Notes: a model not told the origin generated them from the sequence alone. A stretch of DNA of 64,000 nt from Protoeuglena noctilucae (GCA_958009085.1 OY253670.1:1612001-1676000); one strand, 5' to 3'; shown: positions 877 to 53,500, counted from the first letter of the stretch. Made by a program: numbers and translations.

Positions 877-898
877 AGAAAAACGCTGTAAAGCTTTT
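877..898 (+). promoter_or_regulatory. Repeated pre-ATG motif AGAAAAACGCTGTAAAGCTTTT (copy 2)
   Basis: 20/22 identical to 372-393. Confidence 0.55.
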
Positions 899-911
899 CT
901 CCATCCTTATC

Positions 912-1154: not shown

Positions 1155-1173
1155 CATTTTTATATCCTTTTTT

Positions 1174-1533: not shown

Positions 1534-1619
1534 TTATGAGGCGCGTACGGTCAACGCTGGACACGCCAAAGTCAACGCTGGCGCCGCCGTGCGCGTGCCA
1601 TTACTGGCATCAGTAATCC

Positions 1620-18100: not shown

Positions 18101-21100
18101 CCCTCCTCCGCCGGCCGTGCCGCCTTCTCAGAGTTCGACTTCTCCTTCTTCAACCGCACGAGGTTCGCGGGGCTGGAGAACGACGCCGCCAACGCCTACT
18201 GCAACGCGGTGCTGCAGGCGAGGGGGGATGTCATGACATGGCATGTCGTGCCATGCCATGCCATGGGATGTTTGTCTTCACACACTGCAACGCCGTGCTG
18301 CAGGCGAGGGGGCGTGGCATGGCATGCGCTGGTTGTCATGACGCTCTCCCCTTTCTGCTTCGACCATCACCCCCCATCCACCCCCACCCACACTGTACTT
18401 CCTTATACTCTCTCCCGCTCTCACCAACCACCACCCCACCCCCATCCCCCCACCCCAGGCGCTCTTCTTCACCCCGTCTCTCTGCTCCCTCCTCCTCGAC
18501 TACCAGCCCATGCCCTTCCGCGACGCATCCCTCACCGACGAGCTCGCCTTCCTCTCCCACATGCTCCGCACCTCGCCCCCCGGCTCCCCCTGCCAGGCCG
18601 CCAACTTCGTGGCAGCGCTGCGGCAGAACCGGGAAGCCATCGGGCTGGGGCTGCTGGAGAGCCCAGCCAAGGACATGGCGGGGATCACCGGTGAGGAGCA
18701 GTGGTGCGGTATGGGACGCGTGTGTGTTGTTCGAGTGTAGAGAGACAGAGTGGTGGTCAGATGCAAACAGGGCTCGCTTCACACCCTGCCATCCCAGCCA
18801 CTGCGTCTGCCACGATTCGATCGACTCTGATCTCCCCATCCACTGCCATTACAACTCATGCCACTTGCCACCTCTCCATCTGACCACTTTCATCTCCACC
18901 CCCCCCCCCCCCCCCCTCAATCCCCCCCTTCAGGCACCCGGGGGGACCTGGAGGCCACGGCGAGCGTGGTGCGCCACCTGGGCACCCGCGCCCAGGCGCT
19001 GATGCGGTTCCTGCTGCAGCAGATGCTCGCGGAGGACGCCCTGCCGCCCGGGGCCATCAAGGCCATCGTCACCTCCCAGTGGTCGCAGAGGACCACCTGC
19101 CTCAAGGCGAGGAGACATGAGGGGGTGGCAACACACACAACAACACGCAGAATGTCTTTGAACAGTCTGCACGTTCACCGAGCAGCGATATGCGAAGCGA
19201 CGAACGCAGTCCCGTGCATCCACGCTGCACCTGGCCAGCCATGCACGCGCCAGCACTGCGCACTTTTCCATAGCCACCCCTCACCACTCCCCCCCTGTCC
19301 CATGCTCCCCCAGGACCCCTCCGCGGTCATCACCCAGGTGCAGTCCGCGGAACAGATCGACCTGGCGTACCCAGACAGGGCATCCGCTTTGACGAGTCCC
19401 CTCGGCACCGCACTGCCGCCGCCCGCACGCGACCTGCCCAGGGAGGCCATCAACCCCATCGCACTGCCGCTGCTGCGGTGAGGGAGGCGACGAGCAGACA
19501 GCGCTGCGTGTGCGGCATCACTGCAAGCAAGCAGCGCCATGGTTTGTATCTGGGGTGCTACGCCCATTTGCGACGACTAGCACACTCTGTACCATGCAAC
19601 CATCACACTCTCTACCATGCGACCCTCCCCATACCCCCTCGTCCCCCCCCAGTGCCGCGTACCCCCCCAATGCCTCCTGGCGCCCCCCCCGCCCCTCCTT
19701 CTCCGACGTCCTCCGCGCATCGCTGGTCAAGGAGACCACCATGCGGGCGTGGTTCAACGAGGCGAGGGGAGGGACTTTGGCAGATGTGAAACGACCATGT
19801 GCTGCATCGCTGATGTCAGACACAGGCGTGCCATTGCTGCCCACGCAAAGCCCTCTCACTCGCATGCAACAGCTTGGTTACCAGCCCGTCTCTCATCACA
19901 CTCATCACACTTATTGCACTGCTCTCACTCTCACTCACAGGAGCGTGGCTACCAGCCCGTCTCTCAGGACCGCGTCCCCCTCCACCTCCCCCACCTCCTC
20001 GTCGTCGGTGCGGCGCTGCAGGACCCCGCAGACGTGGCATTCTGGCAGGAGGACGACGCGGGGGGTGAGGGCAGGCGAAGCGTGGCTGGCCAATATGCGG
20101 CACACATCATGTCGCCTCCGTTCACTCTCCTCACCCAGTCCTCGCACACCCTTAAATCACCCTCGAACCCACAACCCCCGCCCACACCACCCGATCTCCA
20201 CCCCCACTTCCCCCAGAGCCCTGGCTCCCCGCCGCTGTGGAGGTCGCCTTCAACCCCACCACCCGCGCGGTGCGCGTGGGGCAGGGCCCCTCAGCCCTGG
20301 CGCTGCTGGGGGACCAGGAACACGATCGCGACGATCAAGGCATGCAGCGTGTGGTGTATGACCTGACGGCTGTGGTGTCTCACATGCACGACCCACGGCC
20401 GGCCGCCGAGGGGGAGGACCGGCCGGGTAGCCTGGTGAGGGAGAGTGGGGGGGTGTATGTGGGCATTTGTCAGTACATGTAAGGTGCATGTATGTGAATG
20501 TGCGATGGCATGTGTGGGTGTGGAGGAGCGCGTGCGTGTGGCTGAGCGCGCGTCGCTGGGTGTGTGCTTGGTTCCCAACTGCCTGCCTGCACTGCCTCCC
20601 CTTGCTATTTGCGTGTCTGTCTCAACTGCTTCCTCGCATCTACCCCCCAGGCTGACCCCAAGCGCGAGGGTCACTTGGTGACGCACCTGCGCCTGCACTC
20701 GTGCTACCTCCACGGCAAGCGCAGCACGGCGACCTTCGTTAAGCCAGCCACGCCGGGGCTGTCCCCGCTGCCGGCGAACTGGGAGGCGAGGGGCAGGGAG
20801 AGGGGGGAGGAGGGGGGTGGGGAGGTCAAGGCGGGCGTGGCAGAGGGGAAGGAGGAGCGGGAGGTGAGGGGTGGAGAGGGGTGGGGTGGGTGTGATTTGC
20901 GGGGAATGGCAGAGGTGAGAGATGACGGGTGAGGTGTGTGACATCGCACGTCGTTGCCACAGAGCAGCTGAGTTGTGACAGCCCCCCCCCACCCCCTCCT
21001 TCCCCTCGCAGCCATCCACTCCCCCCCCTTCCCACCTCCCCTCCTCGTCTCGCCGGCTGCTGTCGCCCGGTGACGACGGGGAGCTGGGCCACGGCGACTG

Positions 21101-23258
21101 GCTGCTGCTGAACGACTTCGCGGTCACCCGGAGCAGCGAGGGGGAGGCCAGGGGCATCTGCGGGGGGCTCAAGGCGCCCGCGCTGCTGCTGTTCACGCGG
21201 TGAGGGGGTGGGGCGCTGTACAGGCATGTTGTCAGGGTTACTAGTATTATCATGAATGGGCTGGGTCAGTCAAGCACAGTACTGCTATGTGAGTGTGATG
21301 AACACACGGTGTCGCTCTCATCGCTTCGCTCGCAGCGTGGATCCTGCCTCGCCATCCGCTGCCACCCCCTCTACCTCTGCCCCTCATCCCCGCATCCCGG
21401 CTGAGCTCCCCCCCTCTGGCCGCATCGTCATGGACGCACGCACCTTCGCGGCACTGTGGTGAGGCGCGGCAGCGGATGACAGCACACATGCACATGCAAT
21501 ACATGCATTGACAAAGCAGTTCGTATGGCTTGCATATTACCTGTTTCTCACACGCACCGCATGCCATGACGCTTGCCTCTGTCTCCCATCTCTGCAGCAA
21601 CGACCCCCCCCTGAACGCCAGTAGCGTTGATCTGCTCCCCCCCCGCTTCCAACCCCTGGACATGGGAAGGGAGGCACCGAGGCAGGGAATGCTGGTGGCC
21701 ATCGACACGGGTGAGCGGCGCAGATGGCCACATGCTCTCACCCTCACTCTATCTCCTCCCCCCACTCTGCGCAGAGTTCGTGCAGATGGCCCCTGCCGAG
21801 TGCACATGGTCACATGCTCTCACTCTTACCCTCTCTCCCCTCTCATTTGCAGAGTTCGTGCAGATGGCCCCCGCCGAGTGTGTCTACCGCGACGGTGCCC
21901 AGGTGGTGCTGCGACCGCCCCGACTGTCACTGGCACGCATATCGGGTGAGACGAGACGAGATGAGAGAGGGGCTGACTGGTGCGCAGACACCCACTCGCA
22001 CTTACCGGGCGCCAACGCCCCACTGCCCTGCTCCCACCCCACCCCCAACACAGACATCCGCACCCACACCCACACCCACACTGCTACCCCCACCCCCACC
22101 CACCCCCTCCCCATCCAGTGGTGCGTGGCGACCCCGGCGACCGCACCGGCACGTGTTTCATCGACGACCACGTCCGCCGCGTGGAGCCCGTCTGGGACTA
22201 CCTGACGCGGTTCAGCGGTGTGTCGCCGGGTGACTTGGATGTGGGCACATCCCGCCACCACCTTACCAGTCTGAAGAAGGCGTATCTGAAGCTGAGGTAC
22301 CTGGTCGACTGCGGGTGCGTGCTCGTGGGGCACGGGCTCAGGTGAGAGGGAGAGGGGGGGGTGTTAGAGGTGATATTGTGAGGAACGTGCTGCGACTAGA
22401 GCGCGTATTGGCAATGCATGGGCGGGAGAGTGCGATGAGAGGAGAAGGGCCGGGACGGGCGACGCGACGGTCATTGACAGTCCTCACCTCCCTGCCCCCC
22501 CCTCCATCACAGGATGGACTTCAAGATGATCAACATCGTGGTGCCGCCCGAGCAGATCGTCGACACGGTGGAGCTCTTCCACTTCAAACACCAGGCGAGG
22601 AAGCACAGAGACACACACACGCTAGCTCCTTGCTCGCTTGCGAGATCACAAGCACGCTGTCACTCCCTCTTCCCCTGTCTGCCACTCTCTCACACCCCGC
22701 CTCTCTCACCGCACACGCTGTCACTCCCCTATCCTCTCCTCACCCCGCTCGTGTCGCCCCTCCCGCACACGCGCACGCTCTCCCCTACCCGTCGCCCTCT
22801 CCTCACCCCGCTCGTGTCACCCACCCCCCTCCCCCCCAGCGCAAGCTCTCCCTCAAGTTCCTGGCCTCCTACCTCCTCCGCGTGGGCATCCAGCAGAGCG
22901 TGCACGACTCCATCGAAGACGCACGCACCGCGCTGCTGCTGTACCGGTGAGGGGTGGATGAGAGAGTGGCAGCAGACGCGTCGATGCACACATGTCTACC
23001 CCATTCTATGGTCCGACCACAACCAATCGTACGACCTGCACCTGTTACCCATGCCATCACATCTCTCCCTGTCCCTGCGATGTTTGCAGGAAGTACCTAT
23101 CCCTGGTGGAGCGTGGGGCGTTGGAGGAGACGCTCCTGGGGATGTATCGGTTCGGGAAGGCGCACGGGTGGGACCCCGCGCAGTGGGACGAGGCAGCCAC
23201 GCGGCAGCTGCAGAGGGAGGGGGAGGGGCAGGGAGAGCAGGGGGGGCCTGCGGAGTGA
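15178..23258 (+). CDS. PAN2: PAN2 poly(A) nuclease catalytic subunit (WD40 + inactive UCH + DEDD exonuclease), many introns
   Basis: FDFSFFNRTRFAGLENDAANAYCNAVLQ; VAIDTEFV; FIDDHV...VWDYLTRFSG; LVGHGL; DFKMINIVVPPEQIVDTVELF; RKLSLKFLA...IQQSVHDSIEDARTALLLY. Confidence 0.93.
18198..18312 (+). repeat. Splice-junction echo in PAN2: exon end plus GC donor duplicated, period 86
   Basis: ACTGCAACGC(G/C)GTGCTGCAGGCGAGGGGG at 18198-18226 and 18284-18312. Confidence 0.93.
21771..21880 (+). repeat. Splice-junction echo in PAN2: acceptor plus exon start duplicated, period 78
   Basis: GCAGAGTTCGTGCAGATGGCCCC(T/C)GCCGAGTG at 21771-21802 and 21849-21880. Confidence 0.95.
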
Positions 23259-23982
23259 TGGATGAGGAGGGGCGAGCGACGTGGCTGCATGTTGGCCTTT
23301 GACCAAGCCATGCGATGCCGGTCGTCGACACTGGCAGTGCAGCGTATGTGAGATGGCATGCGCTGTGGCGCTGCCGGTACGTACGCTCGTTCAAGCAGGT
23401 ACAAATACCATCCAGCGCATCGAAATGGCACCGGCAGATCAGGTGTCGTCACAAAGAGGCAGCATGGCAACGAGCGATGGGTTGACAGTGTGCACGGCCG
23501 TGTGTTGGCGCGATCATTATCAAGCGTCGATACCTATGGGTACCTGGCACAGAGAGGGCGTGAGCCAGGGCTAGGGCCACGCCAAGAGGCGCAGCTGAGC
23601 CACTGCTGGGCTGCTGATGTTGATCGGGAACGAAGGCAGGGGCACGCGGGCGGGATGGCCGCCGGGTGCCGCCATGCCTGGGGAACACAGCGAGCAAAGG
23701 ATCGACGACCCAGCACCGGAAAGCAAGGGGTGCTGGGCGGGGGGTTACAGGTACGGGTCACATGCAACGGGCGCATCGGTGCGGCCCTGCTGGGGGTAAG
23801 GCCAGCGGCGCGTTGCTACATGGCCGGCAGACGACACGCAAATCGTCCATCTGCCGCGCTCGCAACACAGAACGCAGGGCGAGTGATGAAGAGGATGTGG
23901 TGGGAGGGGTCGGCAATGGGGCGAGCTTCCATCACTCCGGCAGGACTGCGCCCGACGACCACAGTCGTTGCGTGGGCTGCGT

Positions 23983-24127
23983 CATCACTGCAGGGCTGGG
24001 AGCGGCGGTCACTGCAGGACAGCGTCGGTCACTGCAGTGCTTGCAGCGTCGGCCACTGCAGCGTCGCTCGCAGTGCCATCACTGCAGGGCTGGGAGTGTC
24101 GGTCGCAGTGCCGGTCACTGCAGGGCT
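23983..24127. repeat. Degenerate tandem array of (T)CACTGCAG units overlapping the stop codon of the minus-strand gene
   Basis: CATCACTGCAGGGCTGGGAG at 23983-24002 and 24077-24096; TCACTGCAGGGCT at 24115-24127; further CACTGCAG copies between. Confidence 0.75.
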
Positions 24128-25399
24128 CTCAGCGTGACGTGGAGGGCGTGGTCGGGGAAGAAGGCGTAGACGCCCGGAAGCGCCTGCTCCACGCATCGAC
24201 GGAACCGTGAGATGCCACGCGCCAGCCAGTGGTCGTCGGGGAGACCCGTCGCGCGGGGGGAGGGGCCGCTGCCGAGCATCGTCCCCACGCGGGGGGGCAT
24301 CGCGTGGCTGCCACGGGGGCGCAGCATGTGGGCCAGGGTGACCCCGAACGCGGGGCTGCGGTAGTGGCTCTCGCGGTTCCCATCCCCCGACACGCGCACC
24401 TGCGGGGGAGGCGAGAGAGAAAGGGTCTACTGGGGAGGTGGCGAGAAAGGTGAGGGAGAGACTGTGACCGGTAACAACAAGGACATAGCTGAGTGGACCC
24501 CTGACTGGCAACGCGTGGTGTGCTTACATGCTTCATCGGCACCGCGTCTGCCATGCACTGCCACTCCCTGCCACTCACTGCCACTCACTCCCTGCCACTC
24601 ACCCAGTAGTCCTCGCTCTCTGCCTCCCCCAGCACCGCGTCCACCCGCCGCGTCGACTCCGGGTCTGGGCCCTCAAAGACCGCGAACCCGCCCCTCAGGA
24701 GCAGCAGCGTCTCGGAGAGGGTCGCCTCGAGGGAGCGTTGCTCGTGGATCACCAGGGAACAGTGGCTGCGGGCAAGGCTAACCATCAGGCCTCGCCACAT
24801 TGGCACCAACAGGTCACTACCCATGACGGCACACCCTTCGACCCCCGCAACAGTCCAGACATCCACATCACTTCCCAACGCACCTGACGAGGTACCCCCT
24901 CCCCCCCGCCTCCCCCACCATGGCCGCCGTCGCCTGCTCGCACACGCGGCACAGCGCGGCGTACTGCACGGGGGTGAGGCGGGCGCCGTCCCTGACCACG
25001 CCCAGCGTGACCTTGGGCCAGAGGGACCCGGGGTTCTCCTTGCTGCGTTGCATAAACAGGGAAGTCAAGGTGCTTGCTCTGGGGTCCCTCGGGGCGCACA
25101 ACAGCACCCAGGGACAGGCCATCACGCTCAGCGCTCAGCTGCGCTTGCTCACCAGACGCTGCGAAAGGTCTGCTCGATGTCCCTCTTGAGCTTTAATACG
25201 ACCGACGGAAAGCCCCTGTGGACAGCCGCGGGCGAAGTGCGTCCCTGTCGCCCTTGTGCGGCAAGGCCTGGCCCTTGCAGGGATCGGGACGCCACGTCGA
25301 GCCACAGACGGCGCACAGGACAACTCACGAGAATGCCAGGGTCAGGACGCCATTCCACGCGACGAAGAAGCTGCGAGGCGCCAGGTAGAAGGAAGGCAT
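24115..25399 (-). CDS. Hypothetical protein, possibly 2H-phosphoesterase-like fold (true start may be further upstream)
   Basis: Splices cleanly to MPSFYLAPRSFFVAWNGVLTLAFSGFPSVVLKLKRDIEQTFRSVCKENPGSLWPKVTLG...FFPDHALHVTLRALQ*. The fold call rests only on the KVTL and HVTL motifs. Confidence 0.65.
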
Positions 25400-26002
25400 C
25401 GCCTCGACGAGGGCCGCCAGGGACGACCCCTCCCCGCTGGGCCCAGCGGGCGGTCCCGCTGGCTCGCTGTTGAAGCTGATAACGTTTGCGGACGGTCCCG
25501 CCGGGGCCTCGTCGTTTACACTGACGACATTCTCTGCAAGGATCGCGAGGAGGACGGTGAAATGGAAGTCTGGGTCTCAGGCATGCAACGAAGCAACCCT
25601 CGGGAGCATCCGCGCACCATGTGCGTGAGACTTTTTCCGCGCCGATGGGCCCGGGGATAGATGATGCTTTTTGCCAACTGACGGCGACGGCGCAGCGGCC
25701 CCAAGGGCGGCGCGCGCCACAAATCGGCCGCCAACGCCCCGTGGCCTCTTGCGCTTGCCCCCCATGGCGAACCCGGGCCCGTGTGGCCGGGCCGCGCTGT
25801 GCCCGTGCCGATCTCCCGCCCCGGAGACCCTCCCGCGCTTTCCGATCCCTCGCAGACCGCGAAACAGCGCTCTCTGGCTGACGTCAGGCCGCGGCACTTT
25901 CGCGAACCCCGGGGGAGGGGGTCATCCGCGGAGCCGGGGCGCGGTGCGGGTCAGTTTCGAAGCATCGTGCGCGTACCCGCGGCGTCCCACTGCATCGCGA
26001 CC

Positions 26003-28795
26003 ATGGCGGACAAGCCGGAGGTCGAGACCTTCGCCTGTGAGGCCGCAGCCAGTTCTGGAAGGGGGCCGGGGGAGCGCGCCGGGCCTCCGGGCCGGGCCCC
26101 GATGGCGTTCCCGCGCTGACGAATCTCGTTTTCGGCGCACCCGCAGTCCAGGCGGAGATCAACCAGCTGCTCTCGCTCATCATCAACACCTTCTACTCGA
26201 ACAAGGAGGTGGGCTGCCAAATTTGGAGCAGCGCTCGGCCGGCCCTCCCGATTGCTCCCCCCGCTGCCGATAGCGAAGACGCGCCTCGGGGCACCGCGCG
26301 GGGCGCTGTCGTGGCCCCGGGAGGCCGGCCCGGCCCTTGGCGGGAGCCCGGTGTGCTGAGCCGTGTCCGCGATCGCCGGGCCCCTCTCGGGCCCCCGCAC
26401 GCGGCCGAGCGCGTTGTTTGGATGTTGACGCATCTGCTCGCCGCGCCTCGTGGGCTCCCGGATCCGCTCGCGACGCGCCCAGGCTCCAGACGCCTCCCGG
26501 CCCCGCGTCCGCAGATCTTCCTCCGTGAGCTCATCTCCAACGCCTCCGATGCGCTCGACAAGATCCGCTTCCAGTCCCTCACGGACAAGTCGGTCCTGGA
26601 CAGCGAGCCGGAGCTCTTCATTCACATCATTCCCGACAAAACGAACAACACCCTGACCATCCAGGACTCGGGTGAGCGCCGCGATGGGCCGGAGGACGCG
26701 TCGGAGTCGCTTTTCGGGCGGGGAGGCGCACGCGCGCCCCGCCGGCCCTCGCGCGCGGTGCACGGGCGGTCGACTTCTAGAAGCCCAAGTTGGGGCGCCC
26801 CGGGCGCGCGCGCGCGATTCCCTGCCCGCGCAGCAGGGGTCCGCGTGCGCCTCACGGTCCGCGGGAGACGCGGGGATCGCCTCCTGCCTCGCGCGCGATC
26901 GCCCGGCCCCTCACCGGTGCCGCCCGCCGCGCTCGCAGGTGTGGGGATGACCAAGGCGGACCTGGTGAACAACCTGGGCACCATCGCCCGCTCGGGCACC
27001 AAGGCCTTCATGGAGGCGCTCTCTGCCGGCGCGGACGTGTCCCTGATCGGCCAGTTCGGCGTGGGCTTCTACTCGGCCTACCTGGTGGCCGACCGCGTCA
27101 CGGGTGAGGCAGGCGCAGGCGCAGCTGCATGCTGATGAGACGAAGTGCGTTGCGATGCTGTGCGACGCTGGCAGCGCGGCTGTGTGATGGGCCACCGCAG
27201 TCGCAGTGCTGCAGTACCTCGCTTGCTCTCCTGACCTGAGCCATGACCCCTGACCCGCCTGCCCCCCTTTCCCCCTCAGTGACGTCCAAGCACAACGACG
27301 ACGAGGTGTACGTGTGGGAGTCCCAGGCGGGCGGCTCCTTCACGGTCCGCCGCGCCAGCGAGGAGGAGGCGCAGGGCCTGGGCCGCGGCACGCGCATCTC
27401 CCTGGCGATGAAGGAGGACCAGATGGAGTACCTGGAGGNNNNNNNNNNNNNNNNNNNNNNNNNNNNNNNNNNNNNNNNNNNNNNNNNNNNNNNNNNNNNN
27501 NNNNNNNNNNNNNNNNNNNNNNNNNNNNNNNNNNNNNNNNNNNNNNNNNNNNNNNNNNNNNNNNNNNNNNNNNNNNNNNNNNNNNNNNNNNNNNNNNNNN
27601 NNNNNNNNNNNNNNNNNNNNNNNNNNNNNNNNNNNNNNCGGGGGAAGCTCGCGGACCTGATGCGCTACCACTCGTCCAAGTCGGGGGAGGAGATGACCAG
27701 CCTGAAGGACTACGTCACGCGCATGAATGAGGTGCAGACGGCCATCTACTTCATCACGGGGGAGGTGACAGTGCCCGGCTGTCGATGCGTGCGCGCCTGC
27801 CCCCCTCGCTCGCTTGCCCCCCACCCAAGCCACTCACCCAGTCCCCCCCCCCTTCCCTCTCTCAGTCCAAGAAGGCGGTGGAGAACTCTCCCTTCGTGGA
27901 GAAGCTGCGCAAGAAGGGCATGGAGGTGCTGTACATGGTGGACCCCATCGACGAGTACGCCGTGCAGCAGCTGAAGGAGTACGACGGCCACAAGCTGGTG
28001 TCGGTGACCAAGGAGGGCCTGACGCTGGACGAGACGGAGGAGGAGAAGAAGGCCAAGGAGGAGCTCAAGGCGCAGTTCGAGCCCCTGTGCCGCACCATGA
28101 AGGACATCCTCGGGGACGCGGTCGAGAAGGTGACTGGCGCATGTGCACGCATGGGTGCATGGGGTGTGAGATGTGTGTGAATGCATGTGCCGCACCATGA
28201 AGGACATCCTGGGGGACGCGGTCGAGAAGGCGAGTGACTGGGTGTGGGGGTTGGCATGTGTAGCATCCCACCCAGGGTGCTGTCCTATGACTGCCAGGGG
28301 TGTCACAGCTGCATACAATTACTGCCACTGCCACTGACAAACCATCTCTCCTCTCCTGCTCCCCAGGTGGTGGTGTCGGACCGGCTGGTGGACAGCCCTT
28401 GCGTGCTGGTGACGGGCGAGTACGGCTGGAGCGCCAACATGGAGCGCATCATGAAGGCCCAGGCGCTGCGGGACTCCTCCATGTCCATGTACATGGCCAG
28501 CAAGAAGACGCTCGAGATCAACCCGATGAACCCCGTGATGGGCGAGATCCGCAAGCGCGCCGAGGCCGACAAGAGCGACAAGACGGTCAAGGACCTGGTG
28601 CACCTGCTGTACGAGACGGCGCTGCTCACGTCCGGGTTCAGCCTCGACGAGCCGGCCACCTTTGCCAACCGCATCCACCGCATGATCAAGCTGGGGCTGT
28701 CGATTGATGAGGACGAGGTGGCGGGGGATGACGCCGACATGCCGGCGCTCGAGGAGGGGGCGGGGGAGGGGTCCCGCATGGAGGAGGTGGACTGA
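26003..28795 (+). CDS. HSP90: Cytosolic heat shock protein 90, middle part lost in an assembly gap
   Basis: [67 protein letters not shown]-terminal MEEVD. Confidence 0.98.
27439..27638. other. Assembly gap (200 N)
   Basis: Run of N. Confidence 1.
28086..28230 (+). repeat. Splice-junction echo in HSP90: 45-nt exon end copied into the intron, period 100
   Basis: 28086-28130 vs 28186-28230, one mismatch. Confidence 0.95.
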
Positions 28796-29108
28796 GAGAG
28801 AGACTGTCAGGATGGGGTGTCGATGCTCTTGCCTTGCCTAGGGCTTGGGCGGGGTTTGGGGGGCGAAGCGCGGGGTGCATTGGCCCGGGGCGCGCCCTCA
28901 TCTCTCGCCCGAGTGTGCCTGTCGCGTAGATAGCGGTGCAGCCAGCGCGGCGGGATGTCCGTTCCATTCAAGGGCAGACAGGACAGGCGATGCACAGCAG
29001 CTAGTCGAGAGAAGTGACACTCTATCATCTACCAGTCGTACAAAGCAAAGAGGGGAACAAGAGGGGGAAGTGATAGTAGACATCCTAACTCTATGCGGCA
29101 CCCCCTTT

Positions 29109-32100
29109 TCACCGCCCCTGCTGCGCCTGCACGGCCCTCCGCAGCGACCCACGCACCGCCTCCCCCGTCCCCGCTGCAGCCCCGGGCGGCATGCACGCCA
29201 CCCCCCATGCACCCATGCCCCCGCCACCCCCCGTCTCCTCCGGCCACTCCCCGTGCCGCCTCGCGTCCAGAAAGTCTTCCGCCCCCCTCATCCCCGCCGC
29301 ATGCATCGCCCCCGCTGCCAATGCGTCCCTGGACACCGGCCCCTCCGCCCTGGCATCCACCTCCAGCCCCACCCCCAGCCCCAGCCGCGCATCCCCCGCA
29401 CTCGCGTCCCCCTCCTCCCCCTCCCCCGCCAGCAGCCCCGCCCCCTCCCACGCCCCGTCCCACGCCCCATCCGCCCCCAGGGCGTACCTCCCCGCATCCC
29501 TCGCCACCCCCGCCACCTCCCTCTCCAGCAGCGCACGCAGCGCCGCCCTGCGACCCTCCTCGTGTTGCGCCTCCATCGCCGCCTCCACCTCCTCCTCCAG
29601 CACCCGCAGAGACACCGCCAATGTGCTGCCACTGCCATTACCACTGCCACTACCAGTACCACTGCCATTGGTACCCCCACTGTTACCCCCACCCCCGCCC
29701 TCCCCCTCCCCACCCCCGCCGCTCTCTTCCAACGACCGCCTGGGCCGCTTGGCCCCCCTCTCTGCGCTGAGGCACTCCCCCCCTGCCTCGTTCAGTCCGA
29801 TGCCCCCCATCCGCCCCGCCAGCTCCTCGGGGGCACTGGTGGCCGCTCCCTCGGGCACCGTGGCGAGGCCCAGGGAACGGGAGGGGCGCCTGGGGGGGTG
29901 GGAGAGGTGGGTGAATGGTGAGGTGACATGGCTGGCATGAGATTGGCAGAGGTGAGCGCACGCACTCAGCATCCCCCGCATGTCACACACTCACCTCTGC
30001 ATGTCCTCGAAGTACTCGTGGCACTCCGCCTCCTCCGCCGAGCACCGCCTAGACGGATCGAATGCCAGCAGACGCGCCAGCAAATCCACCGCCTGCTCCC
30101 CCGCGAACCCGAACCGGGAGAAGAGCTTGGGCGCGCGTCCCCTCAGGTTGCGCAGGTACGAGCGCCACTGGGGGTCCGAGACGGCCTCGATGCACGCCCA
30201 GGGGGGGGTGCCGATCACGTCGAATAGGGCCTGGGGGTTGAGGGGAGAGGGGAGTGGGGGGTGTTTGCAATGAGGGGGTGCCGATGACGTCGAAGAGGGC
30301 CTGGGGGGAGAGATGAGGCAATGGGGATGAGGGATGAGGGGGTGACGAGGACAAGGGTCGGCGCGCGCCTACCCCAATGCAACTCCCCGCTTCTTCTCCC
30401 TCACCCACAGCTCCCCTACTTGCCCGCTCTCCTCTCCACTCCCCTTTTCCCCACCCCCCCTCCCCCTCACCTGCAGTTCCCTCCTGGTCGTCTCGCTCCC
30501 CACCCCCCCCTCGTACGCATCTCCCTCGGTGGGTGTCTTGGGCATGCCCATCATGCCGTACAGGGCGAAGAGAGGGGGGACGTGCAGGCGGGGGACGGGG
30601 CGGGCGCCCGGCTGGGGGATGCGCTGCGGGGGTGATGGGTGGGGGGAGTGAATGTGAGTGGGAGTGACAGAAAGAGAGAGTGTGTGTGATAGAGTGAGAG
30701 AGTGGGAGAGTGAGTGAGACAGATTGTGCAATCATAATGACCTAACAAGTGAGTGTGACAGCCATTCATATGCATCACTCCTATCCCACGCCACCCCCTC
30801 GCCTGCAGCAGTTCCGCGAAGATGCACCCCAGCGACCACATGTCCACGGCACTCGAGTACCCACCCCTCGACATGACCACCTCAGGGGCACGGTAGCAGG
30901 GGGTGGCCACGACTCTCGTCAAAGGGGACTGGGGGGGGCAGGCGTGGGTGCAGGAGGCGTGCGTGTGCGTGGGGGCGTCGTCAGTGTCGGTGTCCATAGA
31001 CGGGCAGGGGTCCTGAGATGAGAGGAGAGGAGGGGGGATGCAGTTGGATGGGGTGGCGATGTGGAGAGGGGCAGCGGATGGACAGGCTCACACACTCTCT
31101 GCTGCTCCCCACGCACCCGCACCTTACCTCCCCAGCAACCCACCCTCTCCCCCTCACCTCCTGCACCCTCACCCCGTGCACCCTACCCTCTCCCCCACCC
31201 CCTCTCCCCCTCACCTCCCGCACCAGTATCACCGGCGCCGCCTCCGCCCCCGCCGGCGGCTTCTCCCCGTACCCCCTCGGCCTGGCGTGCCTGGCAGACC
31301 CCAGGTCGCAGAGCTTCACCACCAGGCGACCCCCCGCGGACCGCGTCAGGAGGCAGTTGGCGGACTTGATGTCCCGGTGCCAGATGTCGTTGCGGTGGAG
31401 GTACGCTGGGGGAGGAGTGGGGTGGGGGGGTGCTTGTCAGTAGTGACGAGTGAAGACTGCAAGTCATCATGCAATCCGTGACTACTTCGCAACGGCCTGC
31501 AGCAGCTGTGGCATGTGACAGTGCACGTACTCACCGATGGCCTGCAGCAGCTGCCACATGAGGTCCCGCACCTCCCCCGCGGACAGCTGCCCTTGCAGAG
31601 AGAAGAGGTCGCCCCCCTCCATGTACTCGGTCGCCAAGTACAGGTCCAGCGAGTCCGCCACCAAGCGACCCCCCACCGCGTGACACGCCCCCGTGGATGC
31701 GGGGCGCAGGAAGGCGTCGCGCAGTCGCACCACCCCCGGATGCGCCACGCGTGCCAGCAGCCGCACCTCCAGTATCACCCGCCTGGCGGTGTCCGTGGTG
31801 GCCAAGGCGTTGCCGATGCGCTTCAAAGCCACGCGGGTGCACGTTCGGGCGTCCTCCGCCAAACACACCTGCGAGGGGATGCGCTAGATATATCAGGTGA
31901 TGACCACTCGTGTCCCTGTCTGCTGTCGCCCCTGCGCCTGGGTGAGCCCTGCCCTTGCCTGGCTGAAGGACCCCGCTCCCAGCTTGGACAGAAGGCGGTA
32001 GTGGGGAGGGAGGGACCATTGCTGGCCCTCCACAAACCACACGCCCTTCTCATAGCGACTCTCCACCTGCGCACGGTGAGGAGGAGAGTGGATGCGCGCT

Positions 32101-32271
32101 GAGGGGCAGGGCAGACTGCGCCGGGGGTACGGGGCGCAGCACGGTGCGAGAGGCGCGACGGGGGGCGTGTGGGCTGGCGCGCAGTCTGAGTTCGGGCGAA
32201 ATCTGAGCAAGCGGCGCATGGCGGACGCGCAGGCGCGTGGGACGCACCACCGAGGCGCTCTTTGGTGGCAT
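29109..32271 (-). CDS. CMGC/MAPK-like Ser/Thr kinase with atypical activation loop (start uncertain)
   Basis: [69 protein letters not shown]. Confidence 0.88.
30204..30307 (-). repeat. Splice-junction echo in the kinase gene: acceptor plus ALFDVIGTP duplicated, period 70
   Basis: 30204-30237 vs 30274-30307, two mismatches, both synonymous. Confidence 0.93.
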
Positions 32272-32843: not shown

Positions 32844-35800
32844 ATGGCGGTGCGACTCAGGCTGGGCGCTATCGCCCTGATCCTGATCGCGGGCATTGCC
32901 AGGTGTGTGCCGAAGTCGGATGCGCTTGCCTGCCACGTCGTGTCCCGTGGGTCTCGTTGCAGGGAAAGGAGCGTCGTGAGTTGTGCCTGTCCGACACGAC
33001 TGCCTGCTGCGCTGGCGCGACCTCCCTCGCGCGAGGGACGGCAGGCGGGGCTGGCCGGCGGTTTGACTTGGGTCGTGAAATCCCTGCGCTTTCGCCGCTT
33101 GTGTGGGGAAAGGTCCGCTTGTGTCGTTCACGGAGATGCCGATCTTGCGATTTCTCGCCATCGCCACCGGCAATCGCCTTTCAGATGCCCGCGAGGCCTC
33201 CTCGCCATGCCCTGCGCTGTTGCGCCCCGTGAACCGCCGGCCGCGGCTTACCTGGACCCCTGCGCTGCTTCCGGGACTCACATAACCGCTCGCTTTGTGC
33301 TGCCGGCGAGTCACCTGCCCTCCCGGCCTCGCCCCGCAGCGTGCGCGCCGCCAGCATCCTCACCATCCCCGTCAAGCTCTCCACGGGCCAGGACGTGTCT
33401 CTGCAAGTGGAGGACGGCGACACCATCGACGCGGCCGTGGACCGCTTCGTGGCGCAGTACCCCTCCGCTGCGGACTTCCATGGGTCGCTGGTCGACGCCG
33501 TCCGCAACGAGGCGAGGAGAAGGATGAGAGGGCTCGTGATGTGTGCTGCTACCTTTGCCCCTTCGCAGTCACCCTGCATCTTTCTTTGCAGCTGTGCGTC
33601 CCACTCAGTCATCGCATGCCACTCCCCCACCTCTCCCCAGGCGGTGGCAGCGCGTCTGATCCCCGAGCTCTCCGTCCCCGTGGCCCGCGAGCCCGACCAG
33701 CCCGCGCTGCTCGTGGTCGACGTCTTCCGCGGCGACGACCCCCTGGCCGTGGCGAGGGAGGCGGCGGCCAAGGCGGGGCTGGTGGGGGACGACGTGGAGG
33801 CGGCCGTGGGGGTCGTGGCGCGGTTCGCCCAGCAGGCGCGGGTGCTGCCGCTCGTGTCGCTGCCCGTGGAGCTGCCCGACGGGTCCCAGGCGCCGCTGGA
33901 GCTCTTCAAGGGCGACGACGTGCCGCGCGTGGTGGCGGGGTTCCTGGAGGCGCGGGGGCTGGGGGGGGAGTACGCGCGGAACCTCGAGGACCACGTCGGC
34001 GAGTAAACATGGGGATGGGTGGAGAGATGGGATGCTAACATGTCTGCAGTGACACACTTGATGCAATTGTTCTGTGACGATGCCGCGTGTCTCCTCCCCC
34101 GCAGTGCGTGAGGCGCAGAAGCTCCGGCTGATGCCCCTCATCTCCGTGGAGACGCAGATGGTGGTGCCGGGGCAGCAGGTGGCCGAGACGGTCATGGGTG
34201 AGGCAGGGGGGGGGTTAGTGTGCACACGTGACCGCCACGGTCAAAACGCCAGGCACTGTGGCATTGGTGGCATGCGTCACCCTCTCATCTCTGCAGTGGA
34301 AATGCATGTAAGAGAGAGTACTCACAGTCACCTGCACCCCCTCTCTCCCCCCCCTTGCAGTGGAGGTGTACGAGGGCGAGAGCATCGACGAGGTGGTGGC
34401 CGTGTACGCCCGCGCCTACGACCTCCCCGAGGAGAGCCAGGCGCGGCTGGCGGCCGTCATCCACGACCGCGCCCGCTCAAGGCGCCTGGTGCCCGCGGCC
34501 ACGGTGCCGACGCAGATCGTGGACGCCGAGGGGCAGGCGCGGGTGCTGGACCTGCCCATCTTCGTGGGGGACACGGAGCAGGAGGCCGTGGACAGATTCC
34601 TGGCATCCCTCGGCATCGACAAGGCCACCATGACGCAGGAACAGGCGAGGGGGGGGTGGCTGTGGGAGAGTGTGCGTGTGCATGGCCACCGTGACGCAGG
34701 AGCAGGTGAGGGAGCTGGGAGTGGGCATCATCACTGAGAGTGCCATGCACCCAGTGCCCCTCCGTCGCCCGCCACCCAGTCCCGCAACTGGGTGCCGTGT
34801 TGACCTTCCCCTCCCTCATCTCTCCCCCGCAGCTGGGTGCCATCTTGACTCAGGTCAAGTCCACGGCCGTGGAGGCGCGGCTGCGGCCGGCCCTGGTGCT
34901 GCAGTACGACACGCCCCAGGTGAGCATAGCATGGCATGGCGTGGCATGGCATGGGATGAGATGGCATGTGCTGCAGTACGACACGCTAGAGAGTGTCATG
35001 CGTATTTAACGGCAGCTGATCGGCAGCCACTGGCATCCCTGCATTACAGCCCCCTCTCCCTTCTCTCCCCCAGGGTGCCAAGGAGCTGGACGTGTGGTAT
35101 GGCGACAGCGTGGAGGCCCAGGTCGGGTCCTTCGCGGACGCGCACGGGTACGCGGCGGAGGAGAGGAACAAGATGATCGCGGAGGTGAGGGGGGTGACAC
35201 TTTCATTGCTATCTCTTCCATCCCATACACCACTCCGCTCTCCCCTTTTATAGGACAACACCACTCCCCTATCCCTCACCTCTCCCCCCATCCACCCTAC
35301 ACCTCCCTCTCCCCTTCTATAGTACTACACCACTCCCATCCCTCACCTCTCTCCCCCCATCACCCCCCCTCAGGTCCACGACCTCCTCCGCCTCCGCGGC
35401 CTGGAGCCCCTGCTGGTCGAGAACATTACCCTCCCCGATGGACGCGTGGTGCCCTTCCGGCTATTCCAGGGGCAGGACGTCGAGGCAGCTGTGGCCTCCT
35501 TCCTAGACAGAGAGGGGTTCCCCGAGCACCGCGCCAACCTGCTGCAGCACGTGCAGGAGGTGGGGGTGCAGGGGCGGGTGCTGCCGGAGCTGTCCCTGGC
35601 CGCGCGGGTGAAGGGGAAGCCCGCCGAGCTGCACATGTTCCGGAGGGACGAGCCGGACGAGGTTGTCAGGGTGTTCGCACAGGTGAGGGGGGGGGAGGGG
35701 GTGGGTGGCAACTGTGTGTGACTGAGCCACACTGCATATCATCATGAGCCAAAGGCTGGTGTGTTCGCCCGCCCCTGCCGCCACGCATCGCTCACCCCCC

Positions 35801-36611: not shown

Positions 36612-39354
36612 CTACGACCCCTCGCCCCCCTCGCCACCCTCGCTCCCCTCGCTCCCCTGCCCCGGCTTGCGCGCCACCAGCCTCAGCACCCGGTCCCGCC
36701 CCACCGCCCCCCCTCGCACCTGCAGCCGCGCCCCGTACTCGCACACCAGCCCCGCCGCCCACACGTGACGCAGCAACGCCCACTTGTCCTCACTACGCAT
36801 CACTGGGGGCAGCACGCGAGGGCACAGCATGGTGCACGCACATCTAGCTTGCCATGAGTAATATCGTCACACACGACAGTCGCCACCTCCGCATCGCATT
36901 CCCAGGCACAGCCACCCCGCCTGCCGCACTGCGTCTGCGCCCCTCACCCGCTTCCAGGCACAGTGCCCCCCCCGGCCGCAGCACCGACGCCACCTCGGCC
37001 ACCGCCCCCGCATCCCGCACCAAGGCCTTCACCACCGCCGCACCCGACTCGTCACCCCCGCTGCCTGGGCCCAGGTACACCACTGCCACATCGAAGAGGC
37101 CCCCACCCGTGGGACCCACTGCGGGAAGAGGAGCAGTGACGCATGAGATCACGGCACCCGTATGCCACTGCCACGAGAGGCTTGCTTGCGATGCACAGAG
37201 ACTTGCAAACACTTGACATCTCTTGCCATCTGCCCCACTCCCCTCGCCTTGCACCGCCGGCCCGCAGCTCCCCTCCGCCAGTGCCTCCCCCGCGAACGCC
37301 ACCGCCATGAGACCCCTCCGCAGGCACAGGCCCGGGTCCGCGTCGATGCCCACGCACTGCAGTCCCTGGCTGGCCATGAGCTTGGTCAGCGCGCCCGCCC
37401 CGCTCCCCACGTGGAGCACGCGGTGACCTGGGGGCAGCGGAGAGGTGGCGAGGGTGGTGGTGCGGTGGCAAGGGTGGAAAGCGCACGTCAGGGAGCGAGG
37501 GTGGTGGAGCACAGGTTGTCATCATCGACAGAGGGGGAGATGGAGAGGATGGCACAGCTATGCGCATGCACACGTGAGTAAGAGTGACTAGTGCGTCGCG
37601 CGTGGGCTCTGCGCGCATCCAACTTCCACTCACCCAGCGTGGGCGACCCCTGCATGCCCCCCGCCGCGTTGCCCATCCGCGGGAACGACGACTCTGCCGT
37701 GGCGATCACCCCCCGGCTGTACATGTCATCCAAAAAGTCGATGCCGGGTGGGGGCGCGCCCGCCATGCCTGGGGAAGGAGTGGGGAGTGGGTACGTGAGG
37801 GATGGGCAGTGGCATCCGTCAGTGTCAGTGCAAGGGTGAGTGGTGGATGCATGTGCCTGCCCTGCCAGCGTCACAATGTGCCATCACTCACGCACTCACA
37901 CCCACGGCCACCCCCCCACTCACCCGTGTCCGGCAGCTCCCCGTCGACGGACTCCAGCGCCGCTTCCCTCGCAGTCGCGCCCGCCTGGTCCCACGAGAAC
38001 CCCGGCTGCCAGGGCCGGGGAGGGGCGGGGCGGCCAAGCCCGGGGCTCACGCGGCCGTCTTGCAGCCGGGACAGCAGGTCGGGCAGACCCGAGACTGGGG
38101 GGGTTGGAGGCGGCATGGGTGCGGAGAACGCAGGGGGCAGGCGGTGTGCAGGCCTGCCGAGCTGCCACTGCCCGTCCCCCAGTGTATGGTCATGTCGCAT
38201 GCGTGTCACACTGCGCATCTCCTGTGGCAACCACTGCACTCGCAGAGCACGCTTCACAGGTCTCACCCGTGAAGGTGGGCACTGCCCCCCCCAGCGCCCC
38301 CGCCGCCGCCACCTCGTTCCCCCCCTCCTCGATGAAGCACGTGGCGGTGCCTGCCCCGTTGCCGCACTCGACGTCCTCGGTCGAGTCACCCACCATGAGC
38401 ATGTCACGGGGATCTGAGGGGAGAGAGTGGCATATGGGCATGGGCACGCTATGGCAGAGAGGGCAGCGCAGCGAGCAGAGGGCATTACGTGTCGCATCGG
38501 TCAGGCATGTGTCGCAGCAGCACTGACTGTCCCCCCCCTGGCCTCACCCACGCCCCACTCGTCCGCCAGGTCCCTCAGCAGTCGGTAGTCGGGCTTCACA
38601 TGGCGGTGGTGCCGAGTAATCACAGCGTCGAAATACCCCTCATACCCGGGACCCAGCACCCGCAGGAACCCATCCACGCTCGCGGGGGTGTTGCGCGTCA
38701 CCAGGGCCACGCGGGTGTCACCCGACGCCTTGAGGTAGTCGAGGAGCTCTCGCAGACCGGGCATGATCTGCAGAGTCTCCACCGCCTGCCTCTGCGGACG
38801 GACCGGTAGGCGACGGTGAAGGGGTGGCAACACAAGGGCAGCGGTGGGGGCAGCGGTGGAGGGGGCAGCGCCAGGGGTAGCAGTGGGGACCGTGCACCAC
38901 ATCTGCCGCTCCTGCTCCGGCTGCCCCTCGCCTCGAGCTCGATGATGAGCGCCATGGCGTCGGCAATGCGGGCCTCGTCCGGCCAGGCCTCCATCGTCGT
39001 GAAGAGGTCGCCGAAGGGGATGCCGCACCGCTCTCGCATCGTGTCGAAGTCGATGTTGGACACCGTCAGGGTGCCATCCATGTCAAAGACGACGCCCTTG
39101 TAGCGGAACGGCTTTGAAGGGGCAGCCGGGACGGTGCCGGCCACGGCGGGCGCCGTGCCACGCGCCTGGACGAGCCGCGTGCCAGCGAGAGGCCCAACGG
39201 AACGAGCGGTCGGGAGAGGATGCAGCGTGGAGAACCGCGGCGCAGACTTCCGTCGGCTGCAAAAGGGGCACACGGTGAGAATTCGCGTCCATCAAGGAGA
39301 TATGTGGGAATTGGACTGGTCCCTTGCGCGTCACTGACCTCCAGCTCACTGCAT
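36612..39354 (-). CDS. HAD-family hydrolase fused to a C-terminal class I SAM-methyltransferase-like domain
   Basis: VVFDMDGTL (motif I), LVTRN (II), KPD (III), MVGDSTEDVECG (IV); then VLHVGSGAG...VGIDAD...FDVA...VLRPGGALCLE. Confidence 0.8.
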
Positions 39355-50576: not shown

Positions 50577-53500
50577 ATGGTGGAAATCGTCGAGCTGACC
50601 GGCCCGGACGCCGGGAGCGTCACTAAGCATGGCGCCGCAGTCGAGCGAGAGATCCAGGAGGAGATCGCGCGGCTGAAAGCCGAGGTCAAGGCGCAGCGAG
50701 ACCGGGCACTGGCCCGGGAGCAAGAGGACTTCTACGCCGACCCGGAGAACCGTCGAGGCATCCGGATCACGGAGAAGGATGTCCCGGTGTACGCCAAGGT
50801 CGTGCACACGACCCTGCAGTATCGGTCAGCCGCGGGGAGGCGCGCGGCTGCCTTGTTGACGCTCCTCCGGCCTGCCACTCTCGCCCCGCGCGATGCCTGT
50901 TCCCCCGCGACCGCCCCCCAGGAACGGCGATTCTTATTCCGGGGAGGTCCTCGCGGGGATATACAGGCACGGGAAGGGCACGCACGTCTGCGCCAAAGGG
51001 GACAAGTACGAAGGCTCGTGGCACTACGACCGTCGGCATGGGCGCGGCAGGTGGGAGGCGGAGTCGAGCAGCGGTGTGCGATGTGGCATCGCTGGAGTGA
51101 CTGCGACGCAGCTGCGTCCTTGCCGCATGCGAGCGCGCCCCATGCCACAGCACCTGCCACAGTGTCCAGACACGCACTCACCTGGTTATGCGCTCATGCC
51201 TGCGAAGCTGATGCCTCCACCCATCGCAGGATGGAGTTTGCGCGTGGCCTGATCTACGACGGCGACTGGGCGGATGACCAGGCTCAGGGGCACGCCATGT
51301 GTCAGTACGAGAACGGCACCGTCTACAAGGTGAGAGCGAGAGATCCGTGAAGGGGTGAGATCGAGGCAGGCTCGCAGGGCAGGGACAGCAGACGAGTGGT
51401 ACTTTGCCATGGTGATGCTGGCATGACACCGGGCGATGTGCGTTAAATGCATGGCACATGGCCACATGGCCACCACATGCTGGCCTTGCACGGGTAGCCA
51501 TCGCTTTGCGGCTGCAGGGGGAGTTCGCCAGCGACGTCCGCTGCGGTTGGGGCCGTGCCACGATGCCCGACGGGTCGTGGTACGAGGGGGAGTGGGACCG
51601 GGACCGCATGCACGGGCAGGGCGCCTTAACTCACGCGGATGGGTCTTACTTCGAGGGGACCTTCCGAGAGGTGAGGGGATGTAGCAAACAAACATATGTG
51701 AAGTTTTGATGTGGTGATGCGTGGTCAGCATGGCAATTGAAAGATGATGCGTGTGCATGCACCGCACTCGTCTGTCGGTGTTGCCAAGGGTCTCATCTGC
51801 CCCCCTGCAGGGCCAGCGTGTCCAGGGTCGCTTCGTGCATGCCGGGCAGGGCGCAGAGTACGTGGGCGAGTTCGCCCAGGGAGACCGTGAGGGCCATGGT
51901 GCCATGACGGTGGAGGGGCAGTGGCGATACGTGGGGGAGTGGCGGGGAGGGCTCAGGCACGGGAGGGGCACGTGCATGTACGCGGATGGGGCCACGTATG
52001 AGGGCATGTGGGCGGAGGACGTGCGGTGCGGGGAGGGGGTGCTGGTGGAGCCGAGGGGGCTCAAGTGAGCGGGCGTGCGTGGTGGAACAGTGCGGGCATG
52101 CTGACTGCGTAGAGGCATGTGTGAGTGTGGGGTTGGGACTGGCAGCTATGCTAATATGACCCTTTCTTCCTGTTGCAGGTACGAGGGGACGTTCGCAGAC
52201 GACGTGCCCCACGGGCAGGGGTGCATGGTGCTGCCGACGGGGGACAAGTACCGGGGGCAGGTGCAGAGGTGAGGAGTGCACGGTGATGGGGGCACATGCA
52301 GAGGTGAGGGGTCGTGTGGGCAGTCACTGTCAGTGGCCACTCCACTCCCACTCGTCATCCCCGTCAGCTCTCTGCTTTCGCAGGGGCCTCCCCCACGGCC
52401 GAGGGCAGGGGGTGGGTGCGGACGGGGAGGCTTACGACGGCGAGTGGGTGGGGGGACAGCGAGAGGGGCGTGGCACGTGCCGGTACGCCAGCGGCGATGT
52501 CTACGAGGGCGAGTGGGCCGGGGGCAAGCGTCATGGGCGGGGCGTGTGTCGCTTTGCGGACGGCGTGACCTTCCGGGGTCTCTGGGAGGGCGACCTGTGG
52601 GTGCAGGCGGGGGCGGATGCGGAGCGGAGTGAGGCGGAGGGGGCGGGGCTGGGAAGGGCGGTGGCGGGGGAGACGGCTGCGTTCCGAGTGCAGGTGCGGA
52701 GAGGCTGGACTAAGCACGGCTGCATGGCTTAGATCACTTTCTCTTTAGACATCCGTGACAGGATGTGCATGGCACAATCACCCGGTGCCTGTCCTGCGCC
52801 GCCCCAGGCCAGGGACCCCGAGGGCAACCCCCGACTGACGGGGGGCGATGCGGTGGAGGCGACGCTGCTGGGCCCCGGGGGTGTCAGGGAGTCAGTGACC
52901 GTGGCGGACAGTGGGGACGGGAGCTACGCGTGCACGTACCTGGTGCGGCGTGCGGGGTCGTGGCAGCTGCGCGTGGAGGTGTCGGGGGAGGAGATGGCCG
53001 GGTCGCCATTCACGGTCCGCGTTGCACCGGGTGCCCCGTGCGTCAAGGCAAGGGGTGGGGGTAGCTGTGGGCGAGCTGTCTGTTTGCAGCGCACTCGTAA
53101 TCATGCTTCCAACCAGCCATCACCCACGCCTGTGTCGCAGAAGAGCGTGCTGGTGGGGGAGGGCCGCCGGTCCGCGCACGTGGGCGTCCCCACCCGGGTC
53201 TTCCTGGAGATGCGGGATGGGTTTGGCAACGCATGTGGACCCGATCATTTCTGTGACTTGGCTGCGGTCTCGGCGGAGCTGGTGTCCCACGCCGACCTCG
53301 TCACAGCCGGTGAGGAAGGGAGGGGTGCGACTTGCAAGATGCCAGTCGATGAGCCACCAGTTGCATGGCTGCAACTCACCTCTCATTAATCGGTATCCAC
53401 TAACATCCACCCACCTTTTCCGCACTCAGAGGCGGCCCTGGAGTCTGAGGGCCGCGTCTCTCTGACCTACGCCCTCCCCTGCCCCGGCATGTACCGCCTG

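Follow-up and report, generated by a model that had tools for sequence, protein, structure and literature searches.

Introns carrying decayed copies of their own exon ends and splice sites in a 64-kb stretch of Protoeuglena noctilucae DNA

The locus and its junction echoes

The window analyzed here is a 64-kb stretch of eukaryotic nuclear DNA from Protoeuglena noctilucae (GCA_958009085.1, OY253670.1:1612001-1676000), with a G+C content of 65% and a gap of 200 N at 27439-27638. Gene models came from a small program that chains exons and had been trained on the window's own sequence; they amount to 15 gene blocks and 108 introns (median 131 nt); exons cover 28.7 kb, introns 16.1 kb and other DNA 19.2 kb. 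All four HSP90 joints seen in RNA are reproduced by these models. Pfam matches identify PAN2 (UCH_1, RNase_T), HSP90, a kinase (Pkinase) and a MORN plus filamin-repeat gene, and a further gene at 33340-36209 (+) encodes repeats of a domain of ~85 residues with no Pfam match. The feature under study, termed here a junction echo, occurs in these genes: an intron contains a near copy of its own flanking exon end together with the adjoining splice site, on either the donor or the acceptor side. All listed pairs straddle a predicted exon/intron border (Table 1), and about one intron in ten (roughly 12 of 107) carries such a decaying copy.

Table 1. Junction echoes and one weaker candidate in the window. 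Repeat length and identity refer to the two copies; the rank of the probe score is that of the own intron among all introns; decoy strengths are given against the authentic site. TRF, Tandem Repeats Finder.
Feature	Span	Strand	Copies and landmarks	Period (nt)	Repeat	Probe score	Decoy site
PAN2 donor echo	18198..18326	+	functional 18198-18240 (exon to 18217, GC donor 18218); echo 18284-18326	86	43 nt, 88%	53, rank 1	18304, equal, 8.1 vs 8.1
PAN2 acceptor echo	19845..19966	+	echo 19845-19895; functional 19916-19966 (exon from 19941)	71	51 nt, 75%	40, rank 1	homologous AG lost
PAN2 acceptor echo, complete two-unit tandem	21720..21880	+	unit 1 21720-21801; unit 2 21802-21880; exon from 21853	78-82	TRF 2.0 copies of 78-nt unit, 83% matches; 21771/21849 within it 32 nt, 97%	59	AG 21773-21774 kept, weaker, 4.7 vs 8.5
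PAN2 acceptor echo, intron 22595-22839	22733..22852	+	copies 22733-22775 and 22796-22838, reaching ~13 exon bases	63	43 nt, 81%	31, rank 1	AG lost
HSP90 donor echo	28086..28236	+	functional 28086-28136 (exon to 28129, GT donor 28130); echo 28186-28236	100	51 nt, 94%		intact GC donor 28230, 6.7 vs 6.0
Kinase acceptor echo, three copies	30204..30352	-	functional 30204-30247 (exon 29995-30230); echo 30274-30317 with intact AG; third copy 30334-30352, weak, older, partial	70 and 64	44 nt, 86%	58	30300, 9.3 vs 10.3
Kinase donor-side repeat, intron 31013-31214	31119..31224	-	GAGGTGAGGGGGAGAGG type	43-59		39, rank 1	
Kinase donor echo	31490..31560	-	functional exon end 31535-31560, GT donor 31534; echo ~31490-31517	45	31539/31494, 5 mismatches in 26	30, rank 1 (next-best intron 27)	donor lost
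Repeat-protein gene donor echo 1	34620..34712	+	functional 34620-34651 (GC donor 34645); echo 34681-34712	61	32 nt, 88%	44	GT 34706 stronger, 10.0 vs 8.1
Repeat-protein gene acceptor echo	34781..34849	+	echo 34781-34804; functional 34826-34849 (exon from 34833)	45		33, rank 1 (best other 22)	AG now AA
Repeat-protein gene donor echo 2	34896..34986	+	functional exon end 34896-34919; echo 34968-34986; spacer a GCATG-type pentamer run (TRF 34924-34968, period 5)	72		38	donor lost
MORN-repeat gene donor echo	52253..52312	+	functional 52253-52277 (GT donor 52269); echo 52288-52312	35	25 nt, 88%	35, rank 1	GT 52304, 9.5 vs 9.1
Weak candidate	13377..13491	-	exon stretch 13473-13491 (intron 13215-13461) recurs at 13377-13397	94	13491/13397, 14 exact bases plus gapped extension	30, rank 1	

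An initial annotation had listed about 11 such pairs, ten of which are confirmed by repeat search and by the probe test described below. The remaining one, 34292/34356, was dropped: it consists of 9 exact bases only, scores 18 and ranks 15th of 107. Beyond that list, two more pairs were found (the acceptor side of intron 22595-22839 and the donor side of intron 31013-31214), together with the weak candidate 13491/13397. The repeat at 31119..31224 carries less weight because of its low complexity. A repeat at 20785/20839 was not counted as an echo, being purine-rich and of low complexity within an exon.

Comparison of junctions with their own and with other introns

Each of 214 probes, consisting of 30 exon and 12 intron nucleotides from both sides of 107 introns, was compared with its own intron and with the 106 others, the match to itself being excluded. 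Scores of at least 30 against the own intron were reached by 13 probes, where 0.15 were expected from the other introns; at a score of at least 34 the figures are 9 and 0.02. The own intron ranked first for 15 probes (2 expected). With reverse-complemented probes only 1 of 214 scored at least 30, such that direct copies outnumber inverted ones 13 to 1. The junction echoes are thus confirmed as real and lie far beyond chance, and the greater similarity of introns to their own exon ends that the earlier account anticipated is borne out within the window.

The single inverted echo lies in intron 24400-24602 of a minus-strand gene, where the donor-junction probe, once reverse-complemented, aligns over 40 columns with the 3′ part of the intron from which it was taken (score 41). 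The two arms could pair, drawing the ends of this intron together.

Independent DNA and RNA contigs

Contigs of four runs were aligned to positions 17000-36999, a stretch that leaves the MORN pair outside; two runs are DNA of the cultured organism from an independent study (X1, X4) and two are RNA (X9, X11). X1 contigs match 17000-22089 without any other letter and with 1 gap, and 27639-36999 with neither other letters nor gaps; the X4 pieces are likewise free of other letters, and both sets are colinear with the window across all ten covered pairs. Over 27000-35100, 0.99-1.00 of sampled words are present in the cultured-organism runs, which come from one study. In addition, an unspliced contig from an RNA library (X11, record 11) spans 28103-28394 and runs through both HSP90 copies.

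These contigs bear on whether the repeats could be stutter of the assembly or of its haplotypes, an artefact for which the 200-N gap in the window and its possible origin from a metagenome sample give some occasion. The two copies of a pair differ by 3-25% (75-97% alike) and have unique spacers between them, and the independent contigs show 0 differences; the pairs are therefore not assembly stutter, and an artefactual origin is hardly credible. Copy-number polymorphism, that is, behavior as a variable number of tandem repeats (VNTR), is not seen in the contigs of the four runs, and no inserted or missing letters are listed for any of them over 17000-36999, which is weak evidence since contigs drop rare variants.

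Splice site usage and decoy strength

In HSP90, the RNA joint 28127>28365 (cut +2) connects the exon end 28129 to 28367 in both X9 (depth 2193) and X11 (depth 251). This joint uses the upstream GT donor and leaves the echo, including the GC donor at 28230, inside the intron. In the kinase gene, an RNA piece of X9 ends at the authentic donor, 31535, and one of X11 ends at 30229, which is the authentic downstream acceptor and not the intact decoy near 30300. The earlier claim that the extra copy is spliced out accordingly stands for the HSP90 donor joint and for these two kinase ends; at the other nine junctions, use of the outer site is predicted from the reading frame only.

Decoy splice sites do arise in the echoes, as had been proposed. 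Four of six donor decoys (18304, 28230, 34706 and 52304) equal or surpass the authentic donor in strength and the other two have lost the GY dinucleotide, while two of five acceptor decoys (30300 and 21775) keep their AG. Loss of GY or AG thus affects 5 of 11 decoys, in agreement with the initial annotation; the four least diverged copies all keep theirs, and decoys decay with age.

Two decoys have a coding side. Use of the upstream PAN2 acceptor would add 78 nt (21775-21852), an open in-frame insert of 26 residues. The HSP90 echo contains an in-frame 27-nt pseudo-exon at 28203-28229 (+), bounded by an AG and by the GC decoy donor; the first-round gene finder accepted it and RNA contigs skip it, which illustrates the hazard posed by decoys. 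If echoes occur at this rate genome-wide, such false exons would be relevant to gene prediction.

Anatomy and divergence of the copies

The exon-derived part of a unit measures 13-51 nt, or 0.2-0.58 of the unit, and the acceptor units carry 28-50 intron bases. In ten ungapped pairs, leaving out the mis-registered 22595 pair, 27 of 260 exon-derived positions differ, falling 9, 5 and 13 times on the three codon positions. Intron-derived parts, where alignable, differ by roughly 25-35% including gaps; in the PAN2 18198 pair, similarity extends ~39 columns into the intron. Divergence between exon parts spans ~3% to ~20%, which suggests several ages. Beyond this spread the notion of an ongoing process is not supported: no difference in presence or absence is listed between the runs. 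Introns with echoes are also longer, as expected if they grew by the duplicated unit (median 188 nt, n = 11, vs 128 nt, n = 96; one-sided Mann-Whitney p = 0.0017).

A pentamer marks the introns of the window. Across 107 introns, GCATG occurs at 7.5 per kb within the 5′ part (first 6-76 nt), compared with 2.1 in the 3′ part and 1.5 in exons, and resembles an intronic motif placed close to the donor; for TGCATG the corresponding values are 3.0, 0.7 and 0.3. It often occurs in pentamer runs, e.g., at 18228-18265 and 34924-34968.

Duplications elsewhere in the window

A census of direct repeats made without regard to annotation, with spacings of up to ~250 nt, gave 108 probe hits at a score of at least 34, where 3 were expected, and these merged into 25 clusters. 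Ten span junctions, two are intron-internal (24562, 35217), three fall at two non-genic loci (23983/24060 and 54250) and ten are exon-internal, located where the coding sequence is of low complexity or encodes coiled coils or MORN repeats. Among the exon-internal periods of the ungapped census, 9 of 11 are divisible by 3 (p = 0.0014 vs one third), whereas junction periods have no frame preference (4 of 10). A preference for 3n periods in exons but not at junctions points to a general duplication process filtered by reading frame.

Two of these repeat regions have structures of their own. At 23983-24135, between PAN2 and the next gene, lies a five-copy array of a 24-nt unit, TCACTGCAGGGCTGGCAGCGTCGG, which reaches into the end of the predicted exon 24115-24399. 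A coiled-coil region at 56675-57196 (-), upstream of a kinesin-like motor, contains in-frame repeats with periods of 42, 51, 63 and 84 nt.

Uniform placement of duplications would offer an opportunity of 0.178 for junctions, 0.178 for intron-internal positions and 0.28-0.32 for other DNA. The expected standing crop was simulated with duplicates that arise at a constant rate and decay neutrally, the functional exon being held under constraint.

Origin of the echoes

The echoes are probably relics of local head-to-tail duplications of 35-100 nt that spanned existing splice junctions, as the initial annotation proposed: the copies are direct, close together and made of an exon and an intron part. 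Because they hold the exon end along with the start or end of the intron, the template was unspliced genomic DNA and not spliced RNA. Adjacency of full units is seen in the 21720-21880 tandem and in the three-copy kinase array, and the units of HSP90 and 34896/34968 now align only in part. A donor-side event would produce the order exon end, donor, spacer, exon-end copy, donor copy and remaining intron, and an acceptor-side event its mirror image. If the spliceosome keeps to the outer site, which is the donor farther upstream or the acceptor farther downstream, the mRNA would be unchanged, the extra unit would become intronic and the intron would lengthen by one period, with the inner copy acting as a decoy splice site that later decays. 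Replication slippage or end-joining repair synthesis may be the molecular cause. Two filters would then shape the surviving set: intron-type, low-complexity sequence may decay two to three times faster, such that intronic and intergenic duplicates fade sooner, and selection may remove units that include much exon sequence, or acceptor units without a branch point of their own, as in these the decoy would be used. The further suggestion that intron sliding or gain follows from this process is not supported, since no moved or new intron occurs in the window.

A number of observations weigh against this reading. The intron parts in HSP90 and 34896/34968 hardly align, whereas the exon parts are 94-100% alike; in the four youngest pairs (18198, 21853, 28086, 30204), all 5 differences are synonymous third positions, which exceeds what a freely drifting echo predicts, although the number is small. 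Exon-interior probes taken 45-87 nt from the junction yield 0 of 214 scores of at least 26, and the census found only two intron-internal duplicates and two non-genic loci. With equal decay, the simulation gives a junction share of 0.37, where 10 of the 14 non-coding duplicates observed span junctions (p = 0.009), and about half of the units should be more than 60% exon-derived, where 0 of 12 are. Among the RNA joints listed, use of the outer site is seen for three of 12 junctions. The gene models are imperfect, having missed PAN2 exon 21336-21458, and the scope is a single window of 64 kb. A plain model of uniform, neutral duplication thus fits only in part.

Part of this discrepancy would disappear if intron-type sequence decays 2-3 times faster. 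The simulated junction share then rises to 0.54-0.58 (p = 0.15-0.23), with divergences of 0.14 for exon parts and 0.36-0.42 for intron parts, compared with ~0.10 and ~0.3 observed. The intron parts consist of C/T-rich tracts and GCATG-type microsatellites, which makes a faster decay plausible. Still, the junction excess combined with a minority exon part calls for extra filters or for a positional bias. Selection against exon-rich decoys and branch-point-less acceptor units could set the limit on the exon part, as could a mutational bias anchored in the intron.

Such a bias could make exon/intron borders hot spots of duplication. Breaks or stalls in structured, low-complexity intron ends would be followed by repair synthesis that re-copies up to ~100 nt, with the unit anchored in the intron and reaching 13-51 nt into the exon, so that introns lengthen from their own borders at a rate sufficient to mark about one in ten of them. 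The structured DNA in question would be the G-runs after GTGAGG/GCGAGG donors, the GCATG pentamer runs and the C/T-rich acceptor tracts. The junction share given above fits this idea, as do an exon part that stays within 51 nt and in every case forms the minority of the unit, the GCATG/CATGG-type microsatellites that form three donor-echo spacers, the fivefold enrichment of GCATG in the first 70 nt of introns and a weak clustering by gene, with three of five kinase introns affected (permutation p = 0.096). The junction excess nevertheless vanishes under the faster intron decay, which the observed ratio of exon to intron divergence independently suggests; the exon-internal 3n-period repeats are duplications away from junctions too; and the unit ends, inspected by eye in the clearest case, have no visible match to G- or C-runs. 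A border-directed origin is thus unlikely. If true, it would amount to a junction-coupled engine of intron growth that maintains standing decoy sites, and not to mere survivorship of random duplications.

Templated insertion is known from polymerase-theta end joining, and an intron break might be repaired by copying a nearby stretch of 20-50 nt that by chance includes the junction. The HSP90 and 34896/34968 copies, recognizable only as an exon end (plus the donor in HSP90), could be read as such patches, and so could the inverted copy in intron 24400-24602. Microsatellite spacers explain the poor alignment of the former, and similarity extends over the whole unit at 21720-21880, in the kinase acceptor array and in PAN2 18198. 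The prevalence of direct over inverted copies and the lack of any reason why the junction should serve as template make insertion of patches improbable. Retention of echoes by selection, as functional decoys for splicing tuning or regulated unproductive splicing, is a very improbable account: the strength of the four donor decoys, the purely synonymous differences of the youngest pairs and the open in-frame product of the 21775 acceptor are what it would predict, but almost half of the decoys have lost their dinucleotide, older echoes contain non-synonymous and frame-breaking changes, the genes are unrelated and share no common sequence, and the dominant HSP90 RNA skips the echo.

Three routes of intron gain were considered and rejected. 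Introners were sought by comparing all 107 introns against each other; the best of 5,671 pairs scores 50 (99.9th percentile 43) and all high-scoring pairs are of low complexity. Tandem duplication as a source of intron change is said to go back to Rogers in 1989; a new intron of this type does not fit, as the introns of 115-245 nt exceed the unit and donor echoes copy the upstream and not the downstream exon. Nor do the repeats flank the intron, as intron gain through break repair would have it.

Comparison with known systems

The closest parallel to duplication across existing junctions is the 37-bp minisatellite in IVS7 of human F7, whose first unit spans the exon 7/IVS7 border and where splicing selects the donor lying farthest upstream (Borensztajn et al., 2006, PMC1557585). 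Like this array, the six donor echoes are head-to-tail units of exon end plus donor, and the choice of the upstream site, with identical and silent pseudo-donors in F7, can be likened to that seen or predicted here. In contrast to F7, which is one locus with copy-number polymorphism in an exon-defined genome with long introns, the window contains ~12 independent two- or three-copy events among 107 short introns, includes acceptor-side cases and has diverged copies, polymorphism not being seen in the contigs.

A review treats tandem genomic duplication as a true source of intron gain and counts 188 events in seven taxa (Yenerall and Zhou, 2012, PMC3443670), and 5 of 31 novel intron positions in Drosophila were ascribed to it (Lehmann et al., 2010, PMC2891723); the model is also treated by Hellsten et al. 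(2011, PMC3265369). As described there, a second splice site arises through duplication, and the extra segment is spliced out with the coding sequence unchanged, both of which the echoes share. The difference is that the model turns an exonic AGGT into a new intron of one unit, whereas here an existing junction is duplicated, an existing intron is lengthened and the introns also contain sequence that is not exon-derived.

A 403-bp duplication across the exon 8/intron 8 junction of FGG, comprising 169 nt of exon, the donor and 232 nt of intron, leads to afibrinogenemia (PMC9052919). In the account given, intron retention or cryptic sites predominate and correct splicing is rare, unlike in the window, where exon parts measure 13-51 nt and the affected genes seem intact; mis-splicing with 169 exon bases fits selection against long exon-derived parts. 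Introners, which are common in some marine algae, likewise contribute intron DNA bordered by repeats (Gozashti et al., 2022, PMC9860276), but the echoes copy the local exon, are not target-site duplications and form no multi-copy intron family here. Intron gains in Daphnia reported in 2009 (quoted in PMC2809761) resemble the echoes in having direct repeats that overlap splice sites, with repair synthesis as the suspected origin. The Daphnia repeats enclose foreign sequence at either end of a new intron; in the window both copies are on one side, 35-100 nt apart, and the intron continues beyond them.

The literature searched comprises single-gene cases and reviews, and none of this density in an alga was among them; the genome-wide survey of Gao and Lynch (2009), which deals with small intragenic duplications and what they do to splice sites, lies outside the comparison, and the claim to novelty is limited because it may hold a baseline. 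The window thus looks like an unusually dense instance of a known mechanism, the density being the new element.

The tandem-duplication route has been accepted mostly from scattered single cases. Datable junction duplicates in ~12 of 107 introns would allow the rate of intron growth from its own borders to be measured, and would also show how a short-intron spliceosome chooses between equal sites 35-100 nt apart and which duplicates selection removes. That exon-derived parts do not exceed ~50 nt is a specific rule open to testing. While the biology is ordinary in kind, this suggests that the organism is suited to studying border-driven intron growth and the choice among duplicated splice sites at scale.

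Relatives of the echo-bearing genes and other features

A metagenome scan with the HSP90 exon returned 80 loci, the best at 82% identity, and the nearest named relatives of HSP90 are green algae and land plants (80-82%). In 73 of 74 loci matching both exons there is no intron at this position, many of them being transcript contigs and uninformative on the age of the intron. The corresponding scan with the repeat-gene exon found no relative. Distant database relatives of this gene have 5-12 stretches of the repeated domain in proteins of 570-950 residues, and no longer transcript-derived protein contains the exon; two near-identical database proteins (P0121, P0125) are unspliced read-through calls of an open reading frame and say nothing about splicing.

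The PAN2 exon missed by the models, found by eye at 21336-21458 (+), is 123 nt long, open and in frame, and splits a predicted 398-nt intron into 136 and 139 nt. No Rfam family was found in the window.

Donors of the GC type usually make up ~1% of donors, and the share in the window is far higher. The 87 training introns comprise 67 with GT donors, 19 with GC donors and one odd case, such that GC donors, mostly GCGAGG, occur in ~22% of predicted introns. Reported GC-AG shares are 14-17% in pelagophytes (bioRxiv 10.1101/2024.10.30.620910) and 56-65% for GC donors in Emiliania (PMC4028052); both the GC-AG share and the intron size in the window are nearer to published pelagophyte values than to those of Emiliania. 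At the left end of the window (1-1600), the G+C content is only 52%, compared with ~65% elsewhere.

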